DNA from: an uncultured Oscillospiraceae bacterium
Lineage (GTDB): Bacteria > Bacillota > Clostridia > Oscillospirales > Oscillospiraceae
Assembly (NCBI GenBank): GCA_944386985.1
Contig: CALXDD010000012.1
Span: 153-64,152, forward strand
Reading direction: 5' to 3'
Length of the DNA stretch: 64,000 nt
This document shows positions 3,748 to 41,441 of the stretch, piece by piece. The position numbers and the translations under genes were made by a program. The notes under the pieces are model-generated. The model saw only the letters and a list, made by a program, of their open reading frames with translations, was not told where the DNA came from and did no database searches. Position 1 is the stretch's first letter, and each line of letters opens with the position of its first letter.

Positions 3748-4838
3748 TTGGAGCCTCCCTTCACCTTGCGGGTCAGCGCGTAGAGGATCATGCCGTTGGA
3801 GATAATGATACGCACCACCTCGCTCACATCCATGTGGATCATGGCGGTCATCACGGTGGGGGTCAGGGTGACCACGCTCTGGTAGAGGATGGTGCCGATG
3901 ATCACATGGGCGATGGACGCTTTATTCACGGCGGCGCCGCCGATGAGGATGGCCGCCACTGTGGGCAGGGTCATGTTGTTGGGGGCCATATACAGCTGCA
4001 TGAAGCCGAAGCCCTGCTGATAGACCAGAATGCCTACCGCCCCCAGCCAGGTGGACATGACCACCGACAAAAGGCGCATCCGGTCCACGTTGATGCCGGA
4101 GGCCCGGGCAAACAGGGGGTTGGAGCCCACGGCGGTCATGGCGGTGCCGGTCTTGGTGCGGAAGAAGGCCCACACAGCCAGCGCCAGCACCGCAAAGAAG
4201 AGGATGGTGCCGGTGGGGAAATAGAGGCCGTTTGCCGGGTCAATGGGGATGGCCAGGAAATTGGCCAGGGCCTTCTCATAAAAGCCGGTCAGGGAGATGG
4301 TGGTACGCAGGCCCTTGCCGGCCAGGCCCCACACCATGGTGGGGCTGGTGTAGGGCAGCAGCAGCCACATCATGCACATGAAGGCGATGGAGGACAGGCC
4401 CACATAGGTGGCGATCATCATTTCGCCGCCCTTGATCCGGTTGAGCAGCCAGCCGTAGCCGCCGCCGGCCAGAAGAGCAAAGGGGGTGGCCAGCAAAATG
4501 GCCATAAAGAAGCTGACCGGTCCGGTAAAGCCCAGCTGAATGGACAGCGTGCCGCCTAAAAGGCCGGCGATGATACCCAGGGGAATGCCGAAGTTCAGGC
4601 TGCAGCCGGAGTGGATCATGGGCACCATGGCCAGCACCAAAACGGCGTTCCAGCTGAAGCGGTTGATGACGTTGCCGATCTGCATGGTCAAATCAGCGCC
4701 CACAATGGGCGCCATGATGAACAGCAGCAGGACGAACCCGGCAATAATGGTCCGGGGCAGTCCGAATCTTGCCGCAAAGCTGAAGCGCGCCATCAGATCT
4801 CTGTTTTCTAATGTTTTCTCCATGTCTGTTCTATCCAT
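3744..4838 (-). CDS. ABC transporter permease (paralog of the downstream permease)
   Basis: 364 aa, polytopic. Operon position is between the ATPase and the second permease. Confidence 0.9.
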   Translation of the reverse strand: MDRTDMEKTLENRDLMARFSFAARFGLPRTIIAGFVLLLFIMAPIVGADLTMQIGNVINRFSWNAVLVLAMVPMIHSGCSLNFGIPLGIIAGLLGGTLSIQLGFTGPVSFFMAILLATPFALLAGGGYGWLLNRIKGGEMMIATYVGLSSIAFMCMMWLLLPYTSPTMVWGLAGKGLRTTISLTGFYEKALANFLAIPIDPANGLYFPTGTILFFAVLALAVWAFFRTKTGTAMTAVGSNPLFARASGINVDRMRLLSVVMSTWLGAVGILVYQQGFGFMQLYMAPNNMTLPTVAAILIGGAAVNKASIAHVIIGTILYQSVVTLTPTVMTAMIHMDVSEVVRIIISNGMILYALTRKVKGGSK

Positions 4839-4849
4839 GACGTCCCTCC

Positions 4850-6436
4850 TTATATCACCTGGCTGACCATCAGCGCACCGAAGGCCTCGGAGGACTCGCT
4901 GGCCGGCAGAATTCCGGCGATCCGCCCTCCTGAAACAATGGCGATCCGGTCACAGGACTGGCGCAGCTCCTCCAGCTCGGAGGAGATCACCACCACGGTA
5001 ACGCCGTGCTCCCGGTTAAACCGCTTGAGGGCCTCCAGCACCAGCGCCTTGGCGCCCACGTCGATGCCACGGGTGGGCTCGGAGACGAAGAGGAACTTGG
5101 GCTGAAGGGCGAAAGCCTTGGCCAGGCATACCTTCTGCTGGTTGCCGCCGGAGAGCTCCTTGGCCTTCTGCCGGGAGCCGGTGCACTTGATCTGCAGTTC
5201 GTCGATATACTTGTTGGTCACGGCGTGGATGGCCCGCTCGTCCCGCCAGGAGAACAGACCGAAGTTCTTGAGGAATTTGTTCTGGATCTGCATGGCGGAG
5301 AAGGCCACGTTCCACTCCAGGGACTCCTCCAGCAGCAGGCCCACGCCCCGCCGGTCCTCCGAGACAAAGGCCAGGGAGGCGTCCAGACACTTTCTGGGGC
5401 TGTTGAGGGGGATGGGTTTTCCTTCAAACTCCACCGTTCCGCCCGCCTCATACAGGCCCATGATGCCGTTGGGGATGCCCAGCTTGCCCTGTCCGGCCAG
5501 GCCGCCGATCCCCAGAATCTCTCCCTCCTTGATGTCGAGGTCAATGTTGCGCACCGTCTCGCCGGGCATGTCCACCCAGAGCTTACGGATGGACATAATG
5601 GTCGGCGCATTGTCGAACTTCCGCACCTCGGCGGCGGAGGCGGCGGCCTCCACCTTCCGGCCCACCATCCAGCGGGTGATTTCCGGCACGTCGATCTCCT
5701 TCGCCGGACTCTCCTTCACCACATAGCCGTCCCGCATGATCACCACCTTGTTGCACACGGACAGGATCTCATGGAGGCGGTGGGTGATAAAGATGACAGC
5801 AATCCCCTGGGCCGACATGCTCCGAATGGAGTTCAGCAGCGCCTCGGCCTCCTTTTCGGTCAAAACGGCGGTGGGCTCGTCCAAAATCAGCAGCTTCAGC
5901 TGCTCCTTGCTGAGCTCACGGGCGATCTCCGTAAACTGTTTGTGGCCCACGGGCATGTCGCTGATCACCATGTCGGCGCTGATTTGGACCCCCATCTTCT
6001 GGATGGCCTGGGCCGAGCGCTCCGCAATGGCCTTGTAATCCAGCGTATCCAGCCTGGGGCCAAAGATTTCAGAAGCAATATTTCGTTTGGTTGGCTCCCG
6101 GTTGAGCAGGATGTTCTCGGCGGCGGTGAAGCCGGGAATCAGCGAAAACTCCTGGTGGACCATGCCGATGCCGGCAGCCAGCGCCTCAAAGGGGGTGGCG
6201 AATTTCACCGCCTGTCCGTTCAGACGGATCTCCCCCTCATAGCCGCCGGTCTCCCGGATGACGTCCATGCCAAAGAGAATCTTCATCAGGGTGCTCTTGC
6301 CGGCGCCGTTTTCGCCCACAAGGCCCAGCACCTCGCCGGCATTCAGGGTGATGTTGATGTCGCTGAGCACCTGATTGCCGAAGAAGTCCTTTTTGATGTT
6401 CCGCATTTCCAGCAAGGGAGCGTTATTATTTTCCAT
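4850..6436 (-). CDS. ABC transporter ATP-binding protein with duplicated ATPase domains
   Basis: 528 aa. Walker A GENGAGKST. Second-domain signature LSGGNQQK. Two nucleotide-binding domains, as in CUT2 importers. Confidence 0.95.
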   Translation of the reverse strand: MENNNAPLLEMRNIKKDFFGNQVLSDINITLNAGEVLGLVGENGAGKSTLMKILFGMDVIRETGGYEGEIRLNGQAVKFATPFEALAAGIGMVHQEFSLIPGFTAAENILLNREPTKRNIASEIFGPRLDTLDYKAIAERSAQAIQKMGVQISADMVISDMPVGHKQFTEIARELSKEQLKLLILDEPTAVLTEKEAEALLNSIRSMSAQGIAVIFITHRLHEILSVCNKVVIMRDGYVVKESPAKEIDVPEITRWMVGRKVEAAASAAEVRKFDNAPTIMSIRKLWVDMPGETVRNIDLDIKEGEILGIGGLAGQGKLGIPNGIMGLYEAGGTVEFEGKPIPLNSPRKCLDASLAFVSEDRRGVGLLLEESLEWNVAFSAMQIQNKFLKNFGLFSWRDERAIHAVTNKYIDELQIKCTGSRQKAKELSGGNQQKVCLAKAFALQPKFLFVSEPTRGIDVGAKALVLEALKRFNREHGVTVVVISSELEELRQSCDRIAIVSGGRIAGILPASESSEAFGALMVSQVI

Positions 6437-9076: not shown

Positions 9077-10555
9077 TTATTTTAAATTTGGATGCTCCAG
9101 CAGATAGGTCAGTAAATACAGCAGCCGGTTCTGCGGAGAGTCAAAATTATCTTCGCCCAGGCACTCAAAAATCTTGGTAATCCGATAGTTGATGGTGTTC
9201 CGATGCACTCCCATGTGGACCGAGGCGTCCATAAAGCTGCGATTGTCATACAAATACCAGAAGAGCGTCTGGGCAAACTGGGTACCGCCGGATTCATCCA
9301 GCTGCCGCAGATACTGATAGTCCGGATGGAGCAGTTTGTCCAAATGGGGCGCGGTGTGCAGGTGCTCCATCAGCAGCGGCACTGCAGCCTCCCGCAGGGT
9401 CGCCCCCGGAAGCCCCTGGCTCCTGGCTCTGCCGGCAGCTAAATCGGCCAACTCCGCTTCCTCCGCAAAATTCTCCAGTCCCGTGAATTCATGGCTGACT
9501 CCCCAGACAAACTGCCCGGCGTCGGCGTATTGGCGCAGGTCCCCGACCAGCTTGCTGTAGGGGCCGTACTCCCGGAGATTGACCAGGAACACAATGCGGT
9601 CCGGCTCCACCAGCGCCTGCATGGGGGACATGTTGGCCTCCAGCTGGTCCTGGGCGGCATCAATCTCCCGCATATCCCGGCTGCTCCGGTTCCCGCCGTC
9701 CCGGTCATATAGAACAATGACGGCAAAATGGTCGTCGTCCTTCCAATTATTGAGCTGGTAGATATCACGGGTATGGTAGCGTGAGGAGCCGTGGAGGGCC
9801 CCCTGCATATACTCCTCCAGCGCCGACTGGAAGAAAAGGACGTCCGGCTTGGCATTGACATAGAAGTTGACAATCTTCTGAAAGACCGACATCAGCTGCA
9901 GGTCCTTCTTGCCGAACGGACGGTTATACTGGTAGGCGCTGATGTAGCCGATGCGGCGGTCTCCGGTGTCCGTCCAGAGATTGGCGTACATGAAATCCCC
10001 CTGATAGAGGGGGGAGTAGGCGATCTGGGGCTCCCGCTGTTCGGCCACCTCAACCGGCTCGTTGAAGGCGTGGCCGATGTTGTAGCGGTGGGAGCGGCCG
10101 GGGCGGAACTGGCGCAGATAGTCCGCCCAGAGGGGATGGGTCTGGGGACCGTAGGAATCGGTCAGCGCCACCAGCTCCATGCGGGAATTTTTGATCAGCA
10201 TCGGACGCATAATGGCTAAATGGGCCTCATCCAACAGGTCCTGAAGGGACGCCCCCTGGAACGCGGACCGGAGCAGGGACGCCTCCCAGGCGTTATAATA
10301 CTCAAAGGCCTCGTTGGCCGCGTTGAAAATCTCGCTGCCGGTGGCGTTGACCACAAAAATGACATCCTCGCCGTTGGTCACGGTGACCAGGCCGAAATCG
10401 GCATCCTTGTCGGAAATACAGGCCAGCGCCTTTTGACTCAGCTCATCCGCAATACGCGTACCCACCAGGCAGGGCTCACCCTCGTGAATGGCCGACTGAA
10501 TTTTGTAGCCCTTCGAACGGAACCAGTCCTCCAGCAGATACATGGACAGTTTCAT
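9077..10555 (-). CDS. PucR/CdaR-family transcriptional regulator
   Basis: 492 aa. C-terminal PucR-type HTH: SVHMGVHRNTINYRITKIFECLG. Confidence 0.85.
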   Translation of the reverse strand: MKLSMYLLEDWFRSKGYKIQSAIHEGEPCLVGTRIADELSQKALACISDKDADFGLVTVTNGEDVIFVVNATGSEIFNAANEAFEYYNAWEASLLRSAFQGASLQDLLDEAHLAIMRPMLIKNSRMELVALTDSYGPQTHPLWADYLRQFRPGRSHRYNIGHAFNEPVEVAEQREPQIAYSPLYQGDFMYANLWTDTGDRRIGYISAYQYNRPFGKKDLQLMSVFQKIVNFYVNAKPDVLFFQSALEEYMQGALHGSSRYHTRDIYQLNNWKDDDHFAVIVLYDRDGGNRSSRDMREIDAAQDQLEANMSPMQALVEPDRIVFLVNLREYGPYSKLVGDLRQYADAGQFVWGVSHEFTGLENFAEEAELADLAAGRARSQGLPGATLREAAVPLLMEHLHTAPHLDKLLHPDYQYLRQLDESGGTQFAQTLFWYLYDNRSFMDASVHMGVHRNTINYRITKIFECLGEDNFDSPQNRLLYLLTYLLEHPNLK

Positions 10556-10595
10556 CTTGCACCTCCCGGACTGTACTTTCAGAATTCTTGCATAA

Positions 10596-10625
10596 ATTTT
10601 ATCACAGCTTCAGGGGAATCCGCAA
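10596..10625 (-). promoter_or_regulatory. Candidate promoter of the PucR gene
   Basis: Minus strand reads TTGCGG, an 18-nt spacer, then TGaTAAAAT (extended -10 like). Located downstream of the operon terminator. Confidence 0.35.
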
Positions 10626-10638
10626 GTCTGCCAATAAG

Positions 10639-10667
10639 AAAAGGAGGACACCGCATGTCCTCCTTTT
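10639..10667 (-). terminator. Intrinsic terminator ending the URO-D/transporter operon
   Basis: Stem AAAAGGAGGACA / TGTCCTCCTTTT. On the minus strand it is followed by TTTTCTTATT, 10 nt after the URO-D stop. Confidence 0.6.
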
Positions 10668-10676
10668 CCGTTCGGA

Positions 10677-11726
10677 TCAGCCGCCGCAGTATTTCCGGCG
10701 GCTGCAGCGGTAGAACGCATCCTCTATGGAAACTTCTCTCTGCCCCATGACCAGAAGGCTCGGCAGCAGCCGCCGGGTCTTCCCCAGGCCGTCCACCAGG
10801 CCGCAGACCAGCGCCTCCGCCTCCTCGTCCGACAGCGACGGATCGATGGTAGTCATGCTCATCTGGAACAGCTTGTCGCCATATTGGTCCATGATGGCCT
10901 GCTTGTCGTTCACCGCGTTCTGGCCCTCCCAGCCGTCAAAGCCGGCGTCGATGAAGTTCTGGATGTGGATGCCAACATTGCCGCAGGAGTGAAGACTGAT
11001 ATACAGTCCCATGTCGTGGGCCGCCCTGGTGACCTTTTGATACTGGGGCATCAGCAGCCGGCGATAGAGCTGGCTGGAGAAAAATGCATTTTTCTGGGAC
11101 CCCATATCGTCATGGAGCAGGATCATATCGGCGTGGAAGAATTGTTTGGCGATTTTGATCAGCTCAATGTGCCACTGGGCCAGCCGGTCGTAGAACTCCG
11201 TCAGGGCCTCCGGCTCCTCCAGAAGGTAGCAGAAAGCGTCTTCAAAGCTGGTCAGATCGGCGGTCCGCTCAAAAAAGCCGTTGAGAATGACAAAGGTGGT
11301 AAACCGCTCCGGCGACAGGCCCTGGGCATAGTGCTCGTCGATTTCCTTTTGCCAGTCGATGCTCCATGGGTCAAACCACTCCAGCTCCTCCCGCCAGCGG
11401 GTGATGTCCGACAGGCGGCGGGTGCCGGGGGTAACCATGGCGGCACGGATGTTGGGCTCATAGGTCCACTGAATCCCGAAGCAGTCAACGCCGCCAAAGG
11501 CCCGGGCGCGGTTGTCGGGAAACGCATAGGGGCAGACTGTGGCGCAGTCCCGGCGCATATCGGGCATCCACAGCGGGTTCTCTCCCCGCAGGTAGCGGAG
11601 GATGTTTTCTCTGGGGGAAATGGGCCGGTTGAACTTGGGAATCACCTTGTCGGGTCCGCCATAGAGGCCGGGCAGCTTATACTGGCCGATGACCTCCAGC
11701 TCCCGTTCATCAAAACTCGGATACAG
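10677..11726 (-). CDS. Uroporphyrinogen-decarboxylase (URO-D) family protein, MtaA/CmuA-like methyltransferase paralog 1; start uncertain
   Basis: URO-D-like core (LHSCGNVGIHIQNFIDAGFDGW). The N-terminus aligns with paralogs 2 and 3 (ENILRYLRGENPLWMPDMRRD). The track ATG at 11828 overlaps the upstream gene. No in-frame ATG follows the RBS AAGGAGGAG, so a CTG (11726) or GTG (11645) start is possible. Confidence 0.85.
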   Translation of the reverse strand: MYPSFDERELEVIGQYKLPGLYGGPDKVIPKFNRPISPRENILRYLRGENPLWMPDMRRDCATVCPYAFPDNRARAFGGVDCFGIQWTYEPNIRAAMVTPGTRRLSDITRWREELEWFDPWSIDWQKEIDEHYAQGLSPERFTTFVILNGFFERTADLTSFEDAFCYLLEEPEALTEFYDRLAQWHIELIKIAKQFFHADMILLHDDMGSQKNAFFSSQLYRRLLMPQYQKVTRAAHDMGLYISLHSCGNVGIHIQNFIDAGFDGWEGQNAVNDKQAIMDQYGDKLFQMSMTTIDPSLSDEEAEALVCGLVDGLGKTRRLLPSLLVMGQREVSIEDAFYRCSRRKYCGG

Positions 11727-11740
11727 GGATACTCCTCCTT

Positions 11741-12037
11741 TCAGCGCTTCTTCTGGTCGCGGGCCGCCCGCTGGGCGTTGAGGTATTTCAAAATGCCGTC
11801 GCAGCCGGACATGCAGAACACGCAGCACAGAAGCATCAGTATCATATTGACCATCCGGCTGTCGGAGTCCACCGCCACGGTGACGACGATGGAAATCACA
11901 ATGCCCAGCACAATGGAGATGATCCCGCTAACCACCTGCGGCGCAAGAAAGAACGCCCGGGCGTCAAAGGACCCGTCAGACCGGTAGCAGGGCGGAATCT
12001 CCGGCATCCGGATGTTCTTGTTGTCGTTTTGACTCAT
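11741..12037 (-). CDS. Small two-TM membrane protein, unknown function
   Basis: 98 aa. Strong RBS (GGAAGGAGG, 8 nt, ATG). Hydrophobic segments VVSGIISIVLGIVISIVVTVAV and MILMLLCCVFCMSGC. Confidence 0.6.
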   Translation of the reverse strand: MSQNDNKNIRMPEIPPCYRSDGSFDARAFFLAPQVVSGIISIVLGIVISIVVTVAVDSDSRMVNMILMLLCCVFCMSGCDGILKYLNAQRAARDQKKR

Positions 12038-12078
12038 GAAAAATACCTCCTTCCAGCGTACGGCATACGGAAATAAAA

Positions 12079-13152
12079 TCAGTCGGGATCAGGGACCCGG
12101 CGGTTCTCGGGCTTCTGGTAGAAATCAGCCCGCTCCGCCACGCATTCCTCCACCGCCTGGCGGAAAAACGGCGTGGAGGAGTTGCCGAAGGGGATCAGGC
12201 AGCCGCCCCGGCACAGTTTGTCAATGCGCTGTCCGACGCACTCCTTGATCTTCTCCACCGTCATCCCCGGCAGCTGGATCTCTTTGACATCGCAGCCGCC
12301 GATCATGGTCAGCCGGTGGCCGTAGGTCTTAAGGATGGACTCGATGTCGTTGACCGCCTGGCTGGAGGTCCAGTGCTCCAGTCCGGCGTCCACAGCGGCG
12401 GGAAGGATCTTCTCCCAGCGGCCGCAGGAGTGTAGCTGGAAGATGACGCCCAGCCGTTTGCAGCAGTCGATGATCCTGGTCATCCCGGGCCGGAACAGCT
12501 CGTTCCAGGTGTCCACAGAGAAGAACGCGGCGTTTTGATGGCCCCAGTCGTCGCTCATGTCGATCAGGTCCACCTTGGGGTAATAGTACACGATCTTCTC
12601 AATGGTTTTGCACTTGTAGTCCGCCAGCGCGTCGAAAAATTCCCGCACGGCATCCGGCTCCGCCACCAGGGCCATGGCTCCGTCCTCCATTCCCATCAGG
12701 GAGTGGAGGCGCTCAAACATGCCGTGGCCGATGGAGACGTTCACCAGCTTGGTGTCGGCGTCCTCGCCGGGGTTGCTCTCCACACCGCGCATGGTGGCGA
12801 TGGGGCGCGCCTGGCCGCTGCGGACACCGGTCATATCCCGGGCCACATGGGCCTCCCAGTCATAGCTGTCCGGATCGGGGATCTTGATGAAGTCCCGCCA
12901 GTTCTCCATATCATCTATGGTCATGACATACTTGCCGGTCTTCGGATCGGGCATGGGCATATGGGCCTTGGACTTCTCCTCATACTGCCAGTAAACGCCG
13001 AAGCCGTCATGGCCGCTCTCTCCCACAGGGGGATGGGCCTCATACTGGCAGAAGGACACGTTCAGAGGGGAGAAATCCCGGCGCATGTCGGGGATGTAGT
13101 CAGGGCACTTGCGGTTATAAAACTTCAGCAGGTTTTCACGATAGGAAATCAT
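12079..13152 (-). CDS. URO-D family protein, MtaA/CmuA-like methyltransferase paralog 2
   Basis: Start trimmed to MISYRENLLKFY after the RBS AAAGGAG. 357 aa. URO-D-like core LHSCGRWEKILPAAVDAGLEHW. Confidence 0.9.
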   Translation of the reverse strand: MISYRENLLKFYNRKCPDYIPDMRRDFSPLNVSFCQYEAHPPVGESGHDGFGVYWQYEEKSKAHMPMPDPKTGKYVMTIDDMENWRDFIKIPDPDSYDWEAHVARDMTGVRSGQARPIATMRGVESNPGEDADTKLVNVSIGHGMFERLHSLMGMEDGAMALVAEPDAVREFFDALADYKCKTIEKIVYYYPKVDLIDMSDDWGHQNAAFFSVDTWNELFRPGMTRIIDCCKRLGVIFQLHSCGRWEKILPAAVDAGLEHWTSSQAVNDIESILKTYGHRLTMIGGCDVKEIQLPGMTVEKIKECVGQRIDKLCRGGCLIPFGNSSTPFFRQAVEECVAERADFYQKPENRRVPDPD

Positions 13153-13171
13153 AGGAAACTCCTTTCTTTCG

Positions 13172-14554
13172 TCAGCCGTCGGACCGAGACTTCTGCTTGG
13201 CCTCAAACTCCGCCTTGTACTGTGCCATCTTCGCATTGGTCAGCGGATAGAACAGATAGGCGATGATTCCCAGAACCAGGAAAAAGGTGGGGACAAAGGC
13301 GGTGATGACGCGGATGCCGAACACCGCCCGGTCCGTCATGGCCTCCGCATTGAAGCCGAACAGGGCGAGACCGTAGCCCAGGCAGGCGCTTTTGATCACG
13401 TTGGACAAATTGGCCACCATGGACGTCACCTGATACAAGAAGGCGCGGCAGTTGATGCCCGTGGTGTAGTAGCTCCAGTCCACCACGTTGGCCACCAGGG
13501 CGGAGTCCGTGGCGTGCTGCAGGGAGTAGCCGAACATGCCGATGGACATGAGGGCGGTGAAGGCCACGCCGTTGGTGCCGAAGAGGAAGGACAGAACCAG
13601 GGCCGCGGCGTAGAAGATGTAGCCCACGATGCAGGTCCACTTTCCGCCGATTTTCCGGGAGACAAACGGCGCCACAACGCCTCCCAGCAGCTGGATGAAG
13701 GTGGACGCCGTCAGGTACCAGGTCATGCCGGACATATCGCCGATGACGTAGGTATAGTAATAGGCCATAATGCCGTACACCAGGGAGTAGCATACGCTCT
13801 TGCCCAGAGAGCCGACGCAGCAGCAGAGCATGGGCCGGTTCAGGGCCAGCTTGATCATGGTGCCGACGGGAATGCTGTGGGTCTTTCCGGTCTTGGCGTC
13901 CTTTTCATCGGGCTTCTCCATCCCCTTGATCTGCCGGCAGACAATCAGGATGCCGATGATCAGGGCCACGGAGATGATGGTGGAAAACACCGTGTAGCCC
14001 CATGCCTCAGAGCCCACCAGGCCCACCAGGGCGGCGATGATGGAGACCTGGAAGAAGGACCAGAACAGCTTACCGATGGAGTTCATCTGGAGGCGGACGC
14101 CGGTGAGGGAGGTGCGGTCCTCCACATCGGGCGCCAGCAGGGAGATACAGCCGGTGTAGGGCGTATAGAAGATGGAGTAGCCCACGCCGCCGACAATGGC
14201 GACCATGTACCAGATGTACTTGAACGTGTCAGAGCCGCCCACAGGGGTGAACATCATGATGCCGGTGATGGCGCTCAGGCATCCGCCAAACAGCATCCAG
14301 AAGCGGAAGCGGCCCATCTTCGGGTTGGACTTCTGCATGATAAAGCCCAGGAGCAGAGAGACCACCAGTCCCACGATGCTGGAGATGGTGGAGATGTTGG
14401 CCGCCATCACCGCCGGCAGCATGGCCACCGAGTTGAGGAAGAACTGCTGGTAGTTGGAATTCATCTGGGAACGCAGGGTAGAGAACGTGTTGGCAAGACC
14501 GTAAAGCACGAAAGACTTCTTATAGATGGTCTTGGCAGAAAGCTTGTTCGCCAT
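13172..14554 (-). CDS. MFS transporter, glycoside-pentoside-hexuronide (GPH) cation symporter-like
   Basis: 460 aa with about 12 TM segments. The organisation is GPH-like. Confidence 0.9.
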   Translation of the reverse strand: MANKLSAKTIYKKSFVLYGLANTFSTLRSQMNSNYQQFFLNSVAMLPAVMAANISTISSIVGLVVSLLLGFIMQKSNPKMGRFRFWMLFGGCLSAITGIMMFTPVGGSDTFKYIWYMVAIVGGVGYSIFYTPYTGCISLLAPDVEDRTSLTGVRLQMNSIGKLFWSFFQVSIIAALVGLVGSEAWGYTVFSTIISVALIIGILIVCRQIKGMEKPDEKDAKTGKTHSIPVGTMIKLALNRPMLCCCVGSLGKSVCYSLVYGIMAYYYTYVIGDMSGMTWYLTASTFIQLLGGVVAPFVSRKIGGKWTCIVGYIFYAAALVLSFLFGTNGVAFTALMSIGMFGYSLQHATDSALVANVVDWSYYTTGINCRAFLYQVTSMVANLSNVIKSACLGYGLALFGFNAEAMTDRAVFGIRVITAFVPTFFLVLGIIAYLFYPLTNAKMAQYKAEFEAKQKSRSDG

Positions 14555-14608
14555 AGGGCACCGCCTTTCTCAAATTCTGCAGATCGATTCTCGTTTCTCG
14601 TCTTCTTC

Positions 14609-15634
14609 TCACAGTGTGGGGAGCTTGCAGTGGGCCGGGTCCTTGAAGAAATCACGGTTGGCCTGCACCACTTCAGACACCACCTGGGCCAGATGGGGCA
14701 CGCCGAAGGTGCCGTAGGGCAGGAAGCCGCCGCCGGGGCACAGGTCGTTCAGCCGCTGCTGGACGATCTCCCGCATCTTCTCGATGGGGTAGTTCTCATC
14801 ATAGAACTCCTGCAGGTCCATGCCGCCGGAGCTGATGAAGCGGTCGCCGTACCGGGCCACAATGCTGTGGAGATCGTTGATGGCCTGGCTGGAGGTCCAC
14901 ACGTCGATGCCCGCGTCGATCATATGGGGGATCAGCTTCTCGTTTTTGCCGCAGCTGTGCTGGAGATACAAAAAGCCCTTGGAGCGGACATGATCGATGA
15001 GGCGGCGGACCTGGGGAGCGATGTGTTCGTCCCAGGCGGCGGGACTGATGAAAAGGCCGTTCTTGTGGCCCCAGTCATCGCTGACCTCCAGCATATCCAC
15101 CCCCTTGTAGTATTGGGCAATTTTGTCCACCACGGCGATCTTGAAGTCGAAATAGGCGGTAAAGAAGTCATCCACCGCCTCCGGCTCCTCCAAAAGCGCA
15201 ACATTCGCCTCCGTCATGCCCATCAGAAAATGGAGCCGCTCATAGCAGCCGTGGCCAAGCCCCATATTCAGAAACTTGTCGGGATCTGCATTGGCCATAT
15301 CCCTGGCGGCCATGGCCTCCCAGTCCACGCTGTCCAAATCCGGAAAGCTGACATAGCTGCGCCACTGGGTGATGTCGGGCACCACCGGCGCCGCCTGGGT
15401 GTCCGGCGACGGGGCGGAAAAGCTGGTGGCTTCCACCCGGTACCAGACGCCGAAGCCGTCCTTGCCGCGGCCCTCCCGCAGGGGCTTCTCCGGGTCCGAC
15501 GGGTCCCGCGGGTGCTCCAGATGCTCAATTAAGCTGCACTGGACGCCCTGGCGGTCCTTCCGGTAATCCGGAAGCCACTCGGGGATATGGTGGGTGTAGA
15601 ACATGCGGAAATTTTCCTTTGGCGTGATCGACAC
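14609..15634 (-). CDS. URO-D family protein, MtaA/CmuA-like methyltransferase paralog 3
   Basis: 341 aa. LQHSCGKNEKLIPHMIDAGIDVW. The N-terminus aligns with paralogs 1 and 2. Confidence 0.9.
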   Translation of the reverse strand: MSITPKENFRMFYTHHIPEWLPDYRKDRQGVQCSLIEHLEHPRDPSDPEKPLREGRGKDGFGVWYRVEATSFSAPSPDTQAAPVVPDITQWRSYVSFPDLDSVDWEAMAARDMANADPDKFLNMGLGHGCYERLHFLMGMTEANVALLEEPEAVDDFFTAYFDFKIAVVDKIAQYYKGVDMLEVSDDWGHKNGLFISPAAWDEHIAPQVRRLIDHVRSKGFLYLQHSCGKNEKLIPHMIDAGIDVWTSSQAINDLHSIVARYGDRFISSGGMDLQEFYDENYPIEKMREIVQQRLNDLCPGGGFLPYGTFGVPHLAQVVSEVVQANRDFFKDPAHCKLPTL

Positions 15635-15739
15635 AATGTATTCCCCCTTCTCTCAATCACTTACCCGGGTCCTCCCCCGGGCCTTTCCTGCCTCTACGTT
15701 ACCACAGCTTTTTCCATCCGTCAACGAGTAATTGTAGAA

Positions 15740-15764
15740 AATTTATAATTTCATATTATAAATT
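15740..15764. promoter_or_regulatory. Perfect palindrome in the divergent promoter region
   Basis: AATTTATAAT-ttcat-ATTATAAATT, with 10-bp arms. A TATAAT hexamer is present on each strand. Confidence 0.4.
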
Positions 15765-15880: not shown

Positions 15881-17260
15881 ATGAAGAAAAAACTGCGTTT
15901 CCCGTCAGCCATGGTCATCCTGCTGGGGATCATTGTGCTGGCGGTGCTGCTGACGTGGGTGGTGCCCGGCGGCGAGTTTGGGTCTCATGTGGACCCGCAG
16001 ACCGGGGAAACCGTCACCACCCTGGAGGATTTCTATTTTGTGGATTCCCAGCCGGTGAATCCCCTGGAGATCCCGGTGCGGATCGTCCAGGCATTTATGG
16101 ACAGCTCCACTGCCGCCATTGTGCTCACCTACCTTTTTATGGGCGGCGGCGTATACATTCTGACCGATTCCGGCGCGTTCCAGGCCGTCATGGGCTGGGC
16201 GGTCAGGAAGCTGCGGGGCAACCGGCTGATCATGGTGGCCGGCTTTACCACCCTCTTCTCCCTGGTGAATCTGGTCCTCTCCCCCCACTCCTTTGTGGCC
16301 TTTGTCCCCTTCAGCATCCTCTTCGCCCGTGCCATCGGCTATGACGCCATGGTCGGCGTGGCCATGGCGCTGCTGGGCGGAGCCGTGTCCTTCAGCACAG
16401 GCGCGCTGCTGGCCACCACAGTGGCCGCCCAGACCATGGTGGGCCTGCCCATCTACTCCGGCGCCTCCTACCGTCTGCTTTGCATGGCGGTGCTGCTGAT
16501 CCCCACCATCCTCTACATCTACCGCTACGGCGAGCAGACCCGCACCGGCAAGCGGGCCAGTCTGGTGGCGGACCTGGAGCGGCAGGAGCAGGGCGCCTCG
16601 GCGGAGCTCCCCTCAGAGGTCCATTTTCACCACATCCTCACCATGCTTCTCTTCGTCATCACCATCGGCCTGTGCATCTACGGGTCGGCCTTCCGCGGCT
16701 GGACCAACATCCATCTTTCAGCCGCCTTCCTTGTGCTGGGCATCGTGGTGGGCCTGCTCCACAGGCACCCTCTGGAAGAAGTTCTGCGGATGTATCTGAC
16801 CGGCGCAAAAAATATGCTGAGCAGCGCGGTGCTGGCGGGCCTGGCCGGCGCAGCCACCGCGATCCTCAGCAGCGGCGGGATCATGTACACGATTGTCTAT
16901 TACGCCTCCCAGGTGATCACCGCGGCGCCTCCCGTGCTCTACGCCCCGGTCATGTTTACCATGCACCTGATCATCAACACCTTCATTGTCTCCGGCGGCG
17001 GCCAGGCGGCGGCCACCATGCCCATCATGGCCCCGATCGCAAAGCTCTGCAATCTCCCCATGCAGAGCGCGGTGCTGTGCTTCAATCTGGGAGACGGCCT
17101 TGGAAACTATGTCCTGCCTTACTCCAACCAGCTGATCTCCTACATCGAAGCCGGCTATATCTCCTACGGCAAGTGGATGCGCTTTTTGGGCAAGCTGTTT
17201 GTCATCTGGGTGGTTCTGGCCTGGGTCCTCACCGCCGTGTCGGTGTTTGTCTGGCGCTGA
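15881..17260 (+). CDS. YfcC-family (DcuC-like) anaerobic carrier / putative basic amino acid antiporter
   Basis: 459 aa. YfcC-like N-terminus MKKKLRFPSAMVILLGIIVLAVLLTWVVPGGEF. RBS GGGAGG. Confidence 0.9.
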   Translation: MKKKLRFPSAMVILLGIIVLAVLLTWVVPGGEFGSHVDPQTGETVTTLEDFYFVDSQPVNPLEIPVRIVQAFMDSSTAAIVLTYLFMGGGVYILTDSGAFQAVMGWAVRKLRGNRLIMVAGFTTLFSLVNLVLSPHSFVAFVPFSILFARAIGYDAMVGVAMALLGGAVSFSTGALLATTVAAQTMVGLPIYSGASYRLLCMAVLLIPTILYIYRYGEQTRTGKRASLVADLERQEQGASAELPSEVHFHHILTMLLFVITIGLCIYGSAFRGWTNIHLSAAFLVLGIVVGLLHRHPLEEVLRMYLTGAKNMLSSAVLAGLAGAATAILSSGGIMYTIVYYASQVITAAPPVLYAPVMFTMHLIINTFIVSGGGQAAATMPIMAPIAKLCNLPMQSAVLCFNLGDGLGNYVLPYSNQLISYIEAGYISYGKWMRFLGKLFVIWVVLAWVLTAVSVFVWR

Positions 17261-17359: not shown

Positions 17360-17416
17360 TCAGCGTTTCAGCTTATGTAGGCGTATGGATCATGCCGCAC
17401 GCCTTTGTGTGTGGAA

Positions 17417-18424
17417 TTAGTCCTCGAACTCAGCCACGTTGTCGATGGTCACGGTGGTAACACCGGTATCCACGACCTTGCCGCCCAGGTCCTCGCCCTC
17501 CATCAGAGCGATGGCAGCCTTAACAGCCTCGGAGCCCATGACGTCGGGGTTCTGAGCCATGAAGGCCAGCAGGGAGCCGTCGTTGACCAGAGCGCGGTTG
17601 GAAGCGGAGTTATCGAAGCCCACGCAGATGATGTCAGCGCCGTTGGCGTTGGCCTCCTTCACAGCGTTGCCGGCGCCGTTGGTAGCACCGTCGTTAGCGC
17701 CGTAAACAGCGATCACGCCGTCCTGAATGAGGGCGTTGGTGATCTCCTGAGCCTTCACGGCGTCGCCGTCGGAGTACTGGACCTCGCCCATGGTGAAGCC
17801 GGTGCCCTCAAAAGCGGAGATGAAGCCGTCCACACGGTCGATGCAGGACTGCACGCCGGCCTGAGCGGAGACGATGCCGATGGTGCCCTCGGTGAGGCCC
17901 TTCTCGTCCAGGTAGACCTTCATCTGCTCACCGGCCTGCTTACCGGCAGCGAAGTTGTCGGTGGCGAAGGTAGCGGAACCCTCGATGGTGGAGGGGGAGT
18001 CCACATAGACGATCTTGATGCCGGCGTCGATGGCGGCCTGGATGGCGTCGTTGCAGGCGGTGGAATCGTTGACGGCGATGATGATGACGTCGGAGCCGTT
18101 ATTGGTGGCGGTCTCGATCATCTGGATCTGCTGAGCGTTGTCCTTCTTCTCAGGAGCCAGCCAGTCCATGGTCACATCGTAGCCCTGAGCCACATACTCA
18201 TCCACAGTGGCCTGAGCGGCAGCCTGGAGCTTCACCCAGTGCACGTCCATCTGGTCCATGGTGATCAGGGAGATGTGGCAGGACAGGGCCTCGCCGTCGC
18301 CGGTGTCGCCGCCGGCGTTGCCGCCGTTGCTGGCGCCACCGTTGTTGGTGGTGGTGTTGCCGCCGCAGGCGACCAGGGCCAGAGCCATGATCAGCGCGAG
18401 AGCAAGAGCGAAGATTCTTTTCAT
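17417..18424 (-). CDS. Sugar ABC transporter substrate-binding lipoprotein (ribose/galactose PBP1 type)
   Basis: Start trimmed to MKRIFALALALIMALALVACGG (lipobox), preceded by AAAGGAGAAG. 335 aa. Confidence 0.9.
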   Translation of the reverse strand: MKRIFALALALIMALALVACGGNTTTNNGGASNGGNAGGDTGDGEALSCHISLITMDQMDVHWVKLQAAAQATVDEYVAQGYDVTMDWLAPEKKDNAQQIQMIETATNNGSDVIIIAVNDSTACNDAIQAAIDAGIKIVYVDSPSTIEGSATFATDNFAAGKQAGEQMKVYLDEKGLTEGTIGIVSAQAGVQSCIDRVDGFISAFEGTGFTMGEVQYSDGDAVKAQEITNALIQDGVIAVYGANDGATNGAGNAVKEANANGADIICVGFDNSASNRALVNDGSLLAFMAQNPDVMGSEAVKAAIALMEGEDLGGKVVDTGVTTVTIDNVAEFED

Positions 18425-18489
18425 GATTACTTCTCCTTTTTTGTTTTGATTTATGTGCAAAGCGTTGCCGCTTTGTACCGAAAAATGGG

Positions 18490-19515
18490 TCAGGCCACCT
18501 TGACGGCCTCTTTTTTCGCCTTCTTGGAGGACTTCTTGCCATCGCGGCGCAGCACGTCGAACAGCACGCAGGCCACCACGATCAGGCCAATGATGATGTT
18601 GCGGAAGGCCACGGGCACGTTGGCAAAGGTCAGGCCGCTCTGGAGGATGGCCCACACGCTGGCGCCGGCGATCACGCCCACCAGCAGGCCGCTGCCGCCC
18701 AGGGTGGACACGCCGCCGATAACGGCTGCGGCCACGGCGTACATCTCGTAGCTCATGCCGGCGCTCATATCGCCCATACCGGACTGCGCCATGGTGATCA
18801 GGCCGGTGAGGAAGGCGCAGAAGGCGGAGACCATATAGGCCTTGGTGGTGGTGGCGAAGACGTTGACGCCGGAGAGGCGGGCCGCATCCACATTGGAGCC
18901 GATGGCATAGATGTGGCGGCCGGAGCGGGTGAAGGTGAGGATGTAGAAGAAAATGGCCCAGACGATCAGACCGATCCACACGCCGTTATAGATGCCCAGG
19001 GTCTTGCCGTAGTAGAGAATATCCTTGTACATCTGGGCAGCGCCCTCGCTGCCGATGTTGTCGGTATTATAGTTGCCGTTGGCCAGCTGCGCCACGCCGC
19101 GGGCGATGGTCATGGTGCCCAGGGTGCCGATGAAGGGGGGCAGCTTGAACTTACCCACCAGAAGGCCGTTGATGAAGCCGGTGAACATGCAGGCCAGGAA
19201 GGCCACCAGCACAGCCACCAGAGGATGGGAGCCGTTGCACATCATGGTGGCGGAGATCATGGCGCTCATGCCCAGCACAGAGCCGATGGACAGGTCGATG
19301 TTTCCGGTGATACAGACATAGGCCTGGCCGATGCCCACCAGCAGGAAGGGAACCACGGAGCGCATCAGGGTCAGAAGACTGTTGGGCTTGGCGAAGTTGG
19401 GATTCAAAATGGAAAAAATGATCATCAAAACGATGACACCGGCGAAGGCAGTCAAGACAGAGGCGATGCCCCGGATAGCCAGAAACCTCTGCATCGGGTT
19501 CAGCTTTTTTTGCAT
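18490..19515 (-). CDS. Sugar ABC transporter permease (RbsC-like)
   Basis: 341 aa, polytopic. RbsC-like in sequence and operon position. Confidence 0.9.
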   Translation of the reverse strand: MQKKLNPMQRFLAIRGIASVLTAFAGVIVLMIIFSILNPNFAKPNSLLTLMRSVVPFLLVGIGQAYVCITGNIDLSIGSVLGMSAMISATMMCNGSHPLVAVLVAFLACMFTGFINGLLVGKFKLPPFIGTLGTMTIARGVAQLANGNYNTDNIGSEGAAQMYKDILYYGKTLGIYNGVWIGLIVWAIFFYILTFTRSGRHIYAIGSNVDAARLSGVNVFATTTKAYMVSAFCAFLTGLITMAQSGMGDMSAGMSYEMYAVAAAVIGGVSTLGGSGLLVGVIAGASVWAILQSGLTFANVPVAFRNIIIGLIVVACVLFDVLRRDGKKSSKKAKKEAVKVA

Positions 19516-38166: not shown

Positions 38167-39711
38167 TTACTCCTCCACAGGCTCCGGTGCGAAAAAGGAC
38201 AGGCTCAGGCGAAGGCGCTCCTCCGGATTCGACAGGTCCAGATTGGTGAGCTGCTGGATGCGGTCCAGGCGGTAGATCAGGGAGTTGCGGTGGATGTAGA
38301 GCTCCTGGGCGGTCTTCTGGGTGTTCTGCTCATGGTCCAGATAGCAGCGCAGAGTGTGCAGCAGCTCCCCGTTGTTGTCCCGGTCATATTGCCGCAGGAC
38401 CGTCACGGCGGGATGACACACCAGCTCCGGCGGCACATGGGCGTAGAGGGCCGAGGCCAGGTAGGGTACGGCGATCCGGGCATAGGAGAGGAGCTGACAG
38501 CTCTTGCCGCTGCGGCAGGCGTACTCCCGGGCAGCCCGGGCCTGGAGGTAATAGGTGCGGAAGCGCCGGAGGCTCAGAAAGGTCTCGCTGTAGCCCCCGG
38601 AAGTCTCAAACTGCGGGAGGATCCCCTTCACCGTCCGGCGAAGGCGCATCTCGCGGCTCTCCCCGTCTTCACAGGAGGAGAAGGCGGCGGTCTCGTTGAT
38701 CAGCACCACCAGCTGGTCCTCATAGAGGAATGCCTTCCCCTTGAGCTGGTCCTCAAACATCTGGATCTGGAGGTTGGAAAGCGTCTGATCGATGGAGTCC
38801 CGCTGGCATGCCTCCAGGGCCAGAACGCGGTAGACGTCGCTCTCCTTCCATCCCAGGTTGTCCAGCACGGCGGCGGCCATCTCATCGTCCGCCGTCCCCT
38901 CCAGCAGATCAATAAAGTAGTAGTCAAAGAAATTTCCCGTGGTGGGCAGATACTCCGGGCATCCGCTGAGCAGATCGGTCAGGCGGTTTCCGAAAAATTC
39001 CGCAATCTCCAGCTCGTAGGCCGTTGGCTCGCCGTACATGCCGATGATGTAGAAGTGGCCGATGACCCCCTTGGGAGAGAAGATGGTCTTGCTGACAAAG
39101 GCGTTGACGAAGGCGGTGGTCTTGCAAAAGCAGAGCGCGTGGGGCGTTTCGTTCATCTTCTGGAGCTCGCCGCTGGAGATCATCCGGAAAATCACATCGA
39201 TGGGCAGGTGGCCGTGGGCGGCCTGGTAGCGCCAGATGGGGGAGATCTCACAGTAGTCCGGCTCGTCCTTGATGGCCAGCATCCGAAAGCTGGGGTCCGC
39301 CAGATACCAGGGGTTGGGCGTCACCATGGTCAGCAGGCTGAAAATGTCCATCAGGGGCCTGCGCTTGGCCACGGCCTCGTAGACCAGACCGGACCAGTGA
39401 TGAAACCGCTGAAAAGTACTCTGGACCTCGTTGAAGATCTCGCTGAAGTCCCAGGCGTCCCGAAGCCACAGCACCGGCATGCCGCCGGGAGGCGTGCGGG
39501 TCCCCAGCCAGATCAGCCCCTTGCAGCGCAGGTTCTCCCTCTCCCCGGCGGAGAGGCTCCCGGCACACATGTACACCGTGTCCTCGCTGCAGGGGACGGT
39601 GCTGCTGTAGAGCCCCACCCCCAGGAAGCTGGGGTTTGCATAGCCGTTGAGCCGGAGCTCGGCTTTGCGCCGGCGCAGGGTCCGGCACAAAAAATCCAGA
39701 GAAAGGCGCAT
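38167..39711 (-). CDS. PucR/CdaR-family transcriptional regulator (paralogous context to 9077-10555)
   Basis: Start trimmed to MRLSLDF after GGAGGG. 514 aa. C-terminal HTH: TAQELYIHRNSLIYRLDRIQQLT. Confidence 0.85.
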   Translation of the reverse strand: MRLSLDFLCRTLRRRKAELRLNGYANPSFLGVGLYSSTVPCSEDTVYMCAGSLSAGERENLRCKGLIWLGTRTPPGGMPVLWLRDAWDFSEIFNEVQSTFQRFHHWSGLVYEAVAKRRPLMDIFSLLTMVTPNPWYLADPSFRMLAIKDEPDYCEISPIWRYQAAHGHLPIDVIFRMISSGELQKMNETPHALCFCKTTAFVNAFVSKTIFSPKGVIGHFYIIGMYGEPTAYELEIAEFFGNRLTDLLSGCPEYLPTTGNFFDYYFIDLLEGTADDEMAAAVLDNLGWKESDVYRVLALEACQRDSIDQTLSNLQIQMFEDQLKGKAFLYEDQLVVLINETAAFSSCEDGESREMRLRRTVKGILPQFETSGGYSETFLSLRRFRTYYLQARAAREYACRSGKSCQLLSYARIAVPYLASALYAHVPPELVCHPAVTVLRQYDRDNNGELLHTLRCYLDHEQNTQKTAQELYIHRNSLIYRLDRIQQLTNLDLSNPEERLRLSLSFFAPEPVEE

Positions 39712-40044
39712 AACATCCCTCCTGTCCGCATGGGCGGCCCGCGGTTTTTCCAGTTTTATGATAGTACACTCTGCACAAAATTGTAAGGCAGGGATTCTGG
39801 CACAATCACAGAGAAAAATCAGTTCCCGGACCCAAGGCGCGGATTTCCGGGCTATAATCTTTACTTTTCCAGCTATATCGGAGGAAAAAATGCGGTACGT
39901 CTTGTATACAGCGCCCAAATACCTTTTCCTGACATTTGGGCAGTCTATACATTTCAGAGCAGCCGGTTTTGCTTTATTCTGGAGATAACAGGTCCGGAGA
40001 GAGACTGGAAGCACCGTCTTCACGAAAAGGAAAGGGGAGCGAAT

Positions 40045-41378
40045 ATGAGACGCATCAACAAAAAGATCAAGAGCTTGTGGGGCATATCGGAGGTGGGCTT
40101 TTCCGTCATGTCCACCATGGAGACCACCTTCCTGGTCTTCTTCCTCACCGACGTGGCCCAGCTGCCTCTGGGGATCTCCGGCGTGATCACCGGTTTTTCC
40201 GCCCTGGCGGACGCCATCAGCGCCGTGGTGGCCGGCATCGTCATCGACAAGGTGAGCTTTAAGGTGGGAAAATACCGGCAGTGGCTGCTGTACTGTCCCC
40301 CCGTCGTCACCGTGTTTTTCATCTTCTGCTTTACCAAGATCGGCGGCGACGTCATGGCCGGCGTCATCATCGGCGTGGGCTACGTTCTCAGCCACTTTAT
40401 CTGGAACATCGCCTGGACCGCCAACCGCAACCTCATCCCCGTGCTCACCGACGACCCCGGCGAGCGTGCCTTCCTCTCCGGGCGCATCGCCGTGGGCTCC
40501 TCCTTAGGCAAGATCATCGCCTCCTACCTGGTGCCCTTCCTGGGCACGGCCTTCCTGGCGGTCTTCTCCGGCGTGACGGCCTATACCGTCATCGCGGTGA
40601 TCGCCTGCGTTCTGTACATGATCTGCTACTTCATCCACTACGGCATTACCGCCGGGTATGACACGGAGGTCTACGCCGGGAAAAAGGCCGTCACCTTCAA
40701 GGACATGGCCAAGGGCATCGCCTCCAATCCCCATCTCATCGCGATTTTGCTCCACGACGCCATCCGCCTGGTGGCCTATTACGGCATTGCCGCCGCCACC
40801 TCCTACTACGCCAAGGTGGTGCTGGAGGACTCCGCGGTGGCCTCCTGGCTGCTGATCATGTTCTACGCCGGAAATGTGGTGGGCTCCAACTTCTCCACCA
40901 CCTTCTCCAAGCGCATCGGCGCCCGGAAGACCTCCGCCTTCGGCTGCATCGGCTGCGCGGTATTTATGGCCCTGTGCTATATTCTGCCGGCCCAGACCGC
41001 CGTCATCGCCGTGTGCATGTTCCTGGCCCAGCTGATCTTCGGCGTGGCCTACGCAACCTCTACGCCATGTGCGGCACCTACAGCGTCTGGAAGACCGGCG
41101 AGGACACCCGGGGCGTGGTCATGGTCTTCTGCTCCCTGGCCATCAAGCTGGGCGTGGCCATCCGCGGCGTGCTGATCACCGCCCTGCTTACCTGGATCGC
41201 CTATGACCCCAACGCCGCGGTCATCACCCCCGAGGCCCAGGGGAGCATCAAGTTCATGTTCGCCATCGTCTTTTCCATCATCATGCTGGTGTCCCTGATT
41301 CCCCTGCTGGGCTTCCGTCTGGATGAACAGCGGGTGGCGGAGATGGAGCAGGAAATTGCCAAGCGGGCCCAGAACTGA
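40045..41378 (+). pseudogene. GPH/MFS transporter interrupted by an apparent 1-nt deletion
   Basis: The frame starting at 40045 reads GPH-like sequence up to ..LAQLIFGVAY (about 41052). Family-like sequence then continues in the -1 frame (NLYAMCGTYSVWKTGEDTRGVVM...) to 41378. Confidence 0.75.
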
Positions 41379-41441
41379 TATCCGCCGGTTTGTTCCTACT
41401 GTTGTCCATTCACCATATATTTTTTAAGGAGGTATTTTCCC

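Follow-up and report, generated by a model that had tools for sequence, protein, structure and literature searches.

Operon layout and gene calls

The stretch of DNA analyzed here (the window; 64,000 nucleotides on contig C12 of an uncultured Oscillospiraceae bacterium) carries, on the minus strand between positions 9077 and 15634, six genes and a terminator. In the direction of transcription, the genes encode D3, a GPH-type carrier, D2, a 98-aa open reading frame (ORF), D1, and a PucR-family transcription regulator; D1, D2, and D3 are diverged paralogs of the uroporphyrinogen decarboxylase (UroD) superfamily. Gene order, strand, terminator, and regulator are as an earlier sequence-only reading of this stretch had described them, with some gene starts now corrected. 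It had also stated that no corrinoid machinery is encoded in cis, and C12 indeed returned not a single match for B12-binding, pterin-binding, or RACo proteins. We consider it fairly probable that this operon is the substrate-specific input module of a corrinoid-dependent demethylation system, the core of which is encoded in trans. Most likely, the layout is a previously undescribed one within a known kind of system, and not new chemistry, in a gut or rumen Oscillospiraceae bacterium.

The first gene, D3 (14609-15634; 341 aa), begins with GTG behind a strong ribosome-binding site (GAAGGGGGAA) and is followed by the gene for the GPH/MFS_2-type carrier (13172-14554; 460 aa), the presumed substrate importer. 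For D2 and D1, the longest ORFs were too long. The start of D2 (12079-13152; 357 aa) is the ATG at 13152, located behind the ribosome-binding site AAAGGAG; that of D1 (10677-11726; 349 aa) is most likely, as judged from its sequence context, the CTG at 11726, 8 nt after AAAGGAGG. The orthologous gene at locus L001, from another Oscillospiraceae metagenome-assembled genome (67% GC), has TTG at this position. L001 shows the same order (D3, GPH, D2, a 99-aa ORF, D1, and PucR); like all gene contexts from other loci described here, it was derived from our own ORF calling and local hidden Markov model searches, which are cruder than proper gene calls. Between D2 and D1, the 98-aa ORF (11741-12037) encodes a Cys-rich protein (stretch LLCCVFCMSGCDG) with two predicted membrane helices. 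Its GC content at third codon positions (0.83) and its 78% identity with the 99-aa ORF that L001 has in the equivalent place show that it is a real gene; beyond L001, no homolog was found among the genomes and loci compared, nor was there a significant family match.

Between the stop codon of D1 and the PucR gene lies an intrinsic terminator hairpin (10667-10633, minus strand) with a 12-bp stem (AAAAGGAGGACA / TGTCCTCCTTTT), a 5-nt loop, and a T-rich tail, which a scan for consensus terminators did not flag, though it is evident on direct reading. The PucR gene (9077-10555; 492 aa; HTH_30, 36 bits, plus GGDEF_2), which is kept in L001, is located downstream of this terminator and has its own promoter. 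Upstream of D3, a candidate operon promoter (TTGACG, a 17-nt spacer, and TAACGT; 15696-15724, minus strand) falls into a block conserved in the upstream alignment with L001 and would, by inference only, function as such. A carrier of the DcuC/YfcC type (15881-17260, plus strand; 459 aa; DcuC, 180 bits) is encoded divergently. It has an 88% identical counterpart, also divergent, in L001, and the Lachnospiraceae loci L007 and L008 show the arrangement GPH, UROD, UROD, and DcuC-type carrier; because it is kept in these three loci as a partner of the D2/D3-type gene pair, it belongs to the unit. Between D3 and this carrier gene, the promoter region contains an inverted repeat with perfect 10-bp arms (15740-15764; AATTTATAAT, 5 nt, ATTATAAATT); it is not conserved in L001, and a function as an operator is not claimed. 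Downstream of the DcuC-type gene, a putative 448-aa ORF (17405-18751) without a Pfam match overlaps a long antisense ORF.

A corrinoid core in trans and its association with the family

The sequence-only reading had proposed that corrinoid components are encoded in trans, and these were found when the whole genome (G000; 3.0 Mb in 83 contigs, 95.5% complete, with contigs shorter than ~2.6 kb absent) was searched: one stand-alone corrinoid protein, three pterin-binding proteins, a methyltransferase II among them, and two RACo activases. A complete lack of corrinoid machinery in the genome, which would have spoken against that proposal, was thus not observed. Beside these, the genome has 18 Pfam URO-D matches, and with the family profile, ~16 paralogs reach more than 140 bits. 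The gene for the corrinoid protein is interrupted by a contig break: the end of C55 and the reverse-complemented end of C58 (L080 and L081) share an exact 77-nt overlap inside it, and the joined frame encodes a protein of 214 aa with a DxHxxG motif. (End-to-end overlaps of 77 nt occur 17 times in the assembly, so many contig breaks can be closed by simple joining.) The C55/C58 island has the order URO-D, RACo, DUF2284, PucR, methyltransferase II, corrinoid protein, DUF1846, URO-D, URO-D, GPH, and PucR. Its methyltransferase II (C55 13583-14434) is pterin-binding (NF005719, 268 bits; cut-off 259), its RACo gene is located at C55 9731-11308, and the corrinoid core is adjoined by a URO-D/URO-D/GPH/PucR module of the same type as that in the window, one URO-D enzyme of which is 55% identical to D1. 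Clustering of methyltransferase I with corrinoid protein, methyltransferase II, and activase, which the window operon does not show, was found for its paralogs on C55/C58, and also for relatives of D1, D2, and D3 in L006, L010, G132, G146, L063, and L076.

This modular architecture is repeated across the genome. All six GPH genes lie at most 267 nt from a URO-D-like gene, and eight of the nine PucR genes at most 2.4 kb from one; other modules contain CitMHS/DctM-type carriers, MFS_1 carriers, a GntR regulator, or CobW GTPases. A sibling module is present in the window itself (38167-42443), consisting of a PucR gene (38167-40395, minus strand), a GPH gene in two overlapping frames (40045-41175 and 40974-41378, plus strand), and the gene for a fourth URO-D paralog, D4 (41442-42443, plus strand). 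The split of this GPH gene reflects either a frameshift pseudogene or a sequencing error. In the family tree, D4 clusters with the second of the two URO-D genes in the module beside the corrinoid core.

The association holds across the order. Of 201 sampled genomes from this order, each with a completeness of 90% or more, 46 (from 30 genera) contain the family at E ≤ 1e-20. A RACo activase was present in 45 of these 46 and in 39 of the 155 genomes without the family; for a stand-alone, non-MetH corrinoid protein, the counts, which are based on our own reading of frame lengths, were 45 of 46 and ~29 of 155, respectively. The sole exception in both cases, G068, contains only one weak, short family match. 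Relatives were found in Oscillospiraceae, Lachnospiraceae, Blautia (including B. schinkii), Acetobacterium tundrae, Eubacteriaceae, Parasporobacterium paucivorans, termite-gut Treponema, and Family XIII, a set in which acetogens and known O-demethylators are frequent. Up to 10 kb from 79 related loci, PucR was encountered 25 times, GPH and corrinoid protein 12 times each, methyltransferase II six times, and RACo three times. Adjacency to a corrinoid protein is spread over all major clades in a tree of 122 family members. In G132 and G146, both of the same order, a D1-like gene is directly followed by a methyltransferase-II gene, with matches for corrinoid protein and RACo on the same contigs; in L006 and L010, where the surroundings contain no pterin methyltransferase, a D2/D3-clade gene starts ~20 nt after a corrinoid-protein gene and forms a pair with an MtaA-like gene. 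In-frame TAG codons in the best homologs of the same order, considered as possible pyrrolysine codons, were the genes' own stop regions.

The immediate neighborhood was surveyed through 145 genes directly flanking family members, 34 of them typed beforehand (PucR, GPH, corrinoid protein, and methyltransferase II) and 111 via Pfam. Regulators (PucR, 14; LysR, 11; TetR, 4), carriers (GPH, 9; MFS_1, 7; binding proteins, 5; DcuC, 3; MatE, 3), and corrinoid parts (corrinoid protein, 8; methyltransferase II, 3) recurred, as did oxidoreductases. A Lachnospiraceae cassette, L009, has a gene for an arylamine N-acetyltransferase (4307-5089; PF00797, 146 bits) between those for the GPH carrier and the URO-D proteins. 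Taken together, the context here, the context in relatives, and the co-occurrence across genomes tie the family to corrinoid proteins, as far as gene content can tell. Of what the sequence-only reading had proposed, demethylation via corrinoid components in trans is therefore sustained by context, co-occurrence, and the core found in trans; its suggestion of a glycoside as the substrate is not (see below).

A route for the methyl group beyond tetrahydrofolate is also discernible. The genome encodes MetF, AcsD, an AcsC-AcsE fusion, CooS, CooC, and the 5′ end of acsB. On C48, metF, cooC, and acsD precede the acsC-acsE fusion at the contig end. The fusion (761 aa; L095:7125-9410, corresponding to G000 C48 15124-17409; AcsC, 499 bits; AcsE, 471 bits) combines the large subunit of the corrinoid iron–sulfur protein (CFeSP) with methyl-tetrahydrofolate:CFeSP methyltransferase, and the contig ends ~100 nt past its stop codon. 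The start of C51 (L097:3-371) encodes the AcsB N-terminal domain (CODH_A_N, 86 bits), cut by the contig start, beside cooC and cooS. A Pfam CdhC search did not find acetyl-CoA synthase (ACS), because only its N-terminal domain remains at the start of C51; formyltetrahydrofolate synthetase was found nowhere in the genome. The notion that the host is a non-acetogen, derived from these two absences, was rejected on account of the acs and coo genes on C48 and C51. Most likely, carbon monoxide dehydrogenase (CODH)/ACS is present but broken in the assembly, with the remainder of ACS lost in a gap, and methyl-tetrahydrofolate can plausibly be used for acetyl-CoA synthesis.

The gene content of this genome would also accommodate a more far-reaching scheme, in which at least eight PucR-controlled uptake modules with ~16 diverged methyltransferase-I paralogs all converge on a single corrinoid protein, a single methyltransferase II, and a single activase. 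Exchangeable modules without a corrinoid protein of their own would then account wholly for specificity and regulation, and the D2/D3 pair with its putative MtaA-like metal site (together with the GPH and DcuC-type carriers and the Cys-rich membrane protein) would handle a class of methylated plant or host compounds new to corrinoid enzymes. This scheme is possible but doubtful. The claim of a single hub is limited, because the assembly is fragmented and the corrinoid-protein gene is located at a contig break.

Fold, metal site, and substrate

D1, D2, and D3 share 28-31% pairwise identity when aligned over their full length; they are clearly diverged yet retain a common N-terminal block, as the sequence-only reading had put it. 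Their matches to Pfam URO-D (29-35 bits; 29 for D1) are weak, above the cut-off, and confined to the C-terminal half; the N-terminal half, where the substrate-binding residues of HemE are located, did not align to the profile. Against the hemE equivalog model (TIGR01464; cut-off 303), D3 reached 17 bits, and D1 and D2 did not match at all. Models for MtaA, MtbA, and CmuA gave 25-34 bits versus cut-offs of 235-600, and TIGR01463 (MtaA/CmuA family) gave 26-33 bits, below its cut-off of 235. Because all these scores are far under the respective cut-offs, the three enzymes belong neither to the HemE nor to the MtaA family but form a distant branch of the UroD superfamily. An AlphaFold2 model of D3 (pLDDT 93.5, pTM 0.91) was compared with the PDB using Foldseek. 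The best match was MtaA, the methylcobamide:coenzyme M methyltransferase of Methanosarcina mazei (4ay7/4ay8; TM 0.67, E 1e-10, 14% identity), and HemE structures ranked after it (TM 0.52-0.65). The model of D3, together with the URO-D matches of all three proteins, thus assigns them the TIM-barrel fold of the UroD/MtaA superfamily, and the possibility that they are true HemE decarboxylases did not hold up. The branch is large: a profile search of 1.84 billion cluster representatives returned 450 members at E ≤ 1e-30 and 3711 at E ≤ 1e-10. Their source names are all generic, a protein atlas yielded generic URO-D clusters only, and phmmer against PDB sequences gave only a marginal match to MtaA. 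A family-profile search of the PDB returned leucine-rich-repeat proteins, which were dismissed as spurious matches due to a GxFERL motif. Neither the sequence nor the profile searches of the PDB brought up OdmB, VdmB, MtvB, MtoB, or CdmB.

The H-x-C motif of D2 aligns with the zinc-binding H-x-C of MtaA. D2, D3, and 13 of the 14 other members of their clade contain H-S-C-G followed, ~70 residues downstream, by L-C-x-G-G; in the clade as a whole (n=16), H-S-C-G is found in all but L010 (H-S-D-G) and L-C-x-G-G in 15. The three candidate ligands of D3 are H226, C228, and C299. D2 is sister clade to D3 (support 0.98). D1 has H-S-C-G without the third Cys, and the D4 clade has H-x-D and a different downstream Cys. 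Across the 122 members, the second ligand of the putative metal site is Cys in 88 and Asp in 33, as read from the sequence motif. Directly beside two other paralogs, CobW/COG0523-type GTPases (putative metal chaperones) are encoded (L082:10790-11428, L088:8317-8934; G000 C3). Such neighbors fit metal-dependent enzymes and hint at a need for metal insertion.

Because the His/Cys/Cys site is classically a thiol-activating one, it also raises the question of whether the same corrinoid architecture might serve a methylated sulfur compound as methyl donor or acceptor (a thioether of the methylmercaptopropionate type, a compound of the dimethylsulfide type, or an S-methyl metabolite), with D2 and D3 acting in the manner of MtsA and MtpA via zinc on a thiol. 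The spacing of the motifs is that of the H-x-C-x(n)-C site of MtaA, with which they align, and they are nearly invariant in the D2/D3 clade. The pairing of D3-clade genes with an MtaA-like gene and a corrinoid protein in L006 and L010 would suit this alternative as well. In Methanosarcina, the mtpCAP cluster encodes a corrinoid protein and an MFS carrier together with an MtaA-like enzyme, and Parasporobacterium, which forms methanethiol from methoxy-aromatics, has family members. Still, it is rather unlikely: the MtaA/MtbA/CmuA models score far too low, the third Cys is absent from D1 and from most of the family, Asp replaces the second ligand in a third of it, and the island of this genome pairs the family with a methyltransferase II of the tetrahydrofolate type. 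Moreover, zinc has been reported for aryl-ether methyltransferases I of Acetobacterium as well (PMC13222342).

The sequence-only reading had taken the GPH-type carrier as an indication of a glycoside. The carrier is of the GPH/MFS_2 type (MFS_2, 190 bits; cut-off 27), MelB is its closest solved relative, and all GPH carriers of the genome are devoted to URO-D modules, so that corrinoid-dependent demethylation of a methylated sugar, or of the glycoside of a methoxylated aglycone, had to be considered. However, the match to TIGR00792 (189 bits) is under the cut-off of 231, and D59, D124, and K377 of MelB are replaced by S, Y, and N, respectively (R149 is kept; D19 and D55 are outside the alignment). 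No glycosidase, sugar kinase, or isomerase is encoded in the operon or in its L001 counterpart, and the 25 most recurrent Pfam families among the 111 flanking genes comprise regulators, MFS/DcuC/MatE carriers, and oxidoreductases but no glycoside hydrolase. The recurring partner carriers (DcuC and CitMHS) are of the organic-anion type. Because of the missing glycosidase, the replaced MelB residues, and these partner carriers, a sugar or glycoside is disfavored and appears unlikely. A methoxylated aromatic compound, probably an anionic one, is the likeliest substrate, and the three enzymes may act on different positions or on related substrates.

Several points weigh against assigning the operon to corrinoid-dependent demethylation of such a compound. 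The GPH family classically comprises glycoside carriers, and the classical role of a His/Cys/Cys site was already mentioned. By sequence, the enzymes are tied only very weakly to named families (25-35 bits versus cut-offs of 235-400), and the family tree was built from the 122 members, which do not include the characterized methyltransferases I (OdmB, VdmB, MtvB, and CdmB), MtpA, or MtsA. As to the co-occurrence, the sampled genomes are related to one another and hence no independent data points, and RACo is no specific marker of methyltransferase-I systems, as it also acts on the CFeSP of the Wood-Ljungdahl pathway. There may be more than one corrinoid protein, given the contig break, the absence of small contigs, and the completeness of 95.5%. 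Finally, at 67 of the 79 related loci, no corrinoid gene lies closer than 10 kb. This last point, the URO-D Pfam match, the strong fold match of HemE structures, and carriers compatible with organic acids would all be in line with D1, D2, and D3 being corrinoid-independent (decarboxylases with the URO-D fold or TIM-barrel enzymes of another kind, with an imported acid as substrate and only an indirect link to corrinoids), but this is very unlikely in view of the negligible hemE scores, the unaligned N-terminal half, paralogs inside the corrinoid island, corrinoid-protein adjacency in every major clade, and the presence of both activase and stand-alone corrinoid protein in nearly every genome with the family as opposed to 19-25% of the others.

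Proposed mechanism and comparison with known systems

If the operon is the input module of corrinoid-dependent demethylation, PucR would turn it on, presumably upon encountering the substrate, and the GPH-type carrier would import the methylated compound, most likely a methoxylated aromatic, probably anionic, plant compound. D3, D2, and D1 would act as methyltransferase-I TIM barrels (D2 and D3 with the putative MtaA-like His/Cys/Cys metal site) and deliver the substrate's methyl group to the Co(I) of the single stand-alone corrinoid protein, from which the pterin-binding methyltransferase II would pass it on to tetrahydrofolate. RACo would re-reduce the corrinoid protein upon its oxidation, the divergently encoded DcuC-type carrier may export the demethylated product, and methyl-tetrahydrofolate could feed the CODH/ACS route.

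Anaerobic O-demethylation by gut and rumen bacteria alters the activity of dietary polyphenols, lignans, and many drugs, and the responsible bacteria and genes are mostly not established outside a few acetogens (PMC12915777, PMC13418474). Should the proposed function be correct, Oscillospiraceae would join the O-demethylating guilds, and genes next to PucR and GPH that carry the annotation "uroporphyrinogen decarboxylase family" would be recognizable as substrate-specific demethylase modules even when no B12 gene is nearby. It would also provide a testable model of one corrinoid carrier serving many methyltransferases. The regulation of corrinoid methyltransferase systems is largely unexplored (PMC13222342), and PucR would be a candidate regulator family for them; in the open-access literature, no paper was found in which corrinoid methyltransferases are connected with GPH carriers or PucR regulators.

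Structurally, MtaA is the closest known protein; it shares the aligned H-x-C with D2 and the third Cys ~70 residues downstream with D2 and D3. It differs from the window enzymes by its low sequence identity and the family-model scores far under the cut-offs, D1 lacks the third Cys, and the roles are opposite: MtaA transfers methyl groups from a corrinoid to a thiol (methyltransferase II), whereas that proposed here is from a donor to the corrinoid (methyltransferase I). The genome's better MtaA-like genes are separate from the operon. They comprise two full-length MtaA/CmuA-like genes (L091:6372-7412 and L094:9948-10976; G000 C82 and C6), with 192 and 113 bits, respectively, for TIGR01463, although this bacterium is expected to be without coenzyme M.

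The chloromethane system CdmBCA of Acetobacterium dehalogenans also combines a UroD-superfamily methyltransferase I with a corrinoid protein and a methyltransferase II. CdmB, however, is free of zinc and acts on haloalkanes; its gene cluster includes a corrinoid protein and a methyltransferase II of its own, and neither a carrier nor PucR was reported for the cluster (PMC13222342). Type 1 mlp clusters (Kountz and Balskus, PMC10418091) resemble the operon in encoding several diverged UroD-superfamily homologs, in belonging to anaerobic Bacillota, and in that their substrate is not established. They differ by having their own corrinoid protein and Ram/RACE activase while lacking a tetrahydrofolate methyltransferase, and Mlps are ~30% identical to coenzyme M methyltransferases, far closer than D1, D2, and D3.

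Among known systems, the nearest counterparts are aryl methyl ether O-demethylases with four components, described for A. dehalogenans (Odm and Vdm), Desulfitobacterium hafniense, Eubacterium limosum, and E. callanderi (ODM in the latter two); their methyltransferase I belongs to the UroD superfamily (PMC13222342, PMC10418091, PMC12915777). The genome likewise provides a RACo-type activase and a pterin-binding methyltransferase II besides a corrinoid protein, and as in the hosts of these systems, there are CODH/ACS genes and many methyltransferase-I paralogs; A. dehalogenans has 26 methyltransferase systems (PMC13222342). The methyltransferase-I subfamily described here is, however, very diverged. 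The systems of E. callanderi are complete four-protein sets (PMC12915777). In contrast, the window operon has no corrinoid protein, methyltransferase II, or activase in cis but is packaged with GPH- and DcuC-type carriers, a small membrane protein, and PucR, and the ~16 paralogs of this genome apparently share one stand-alone corrinoid protein.

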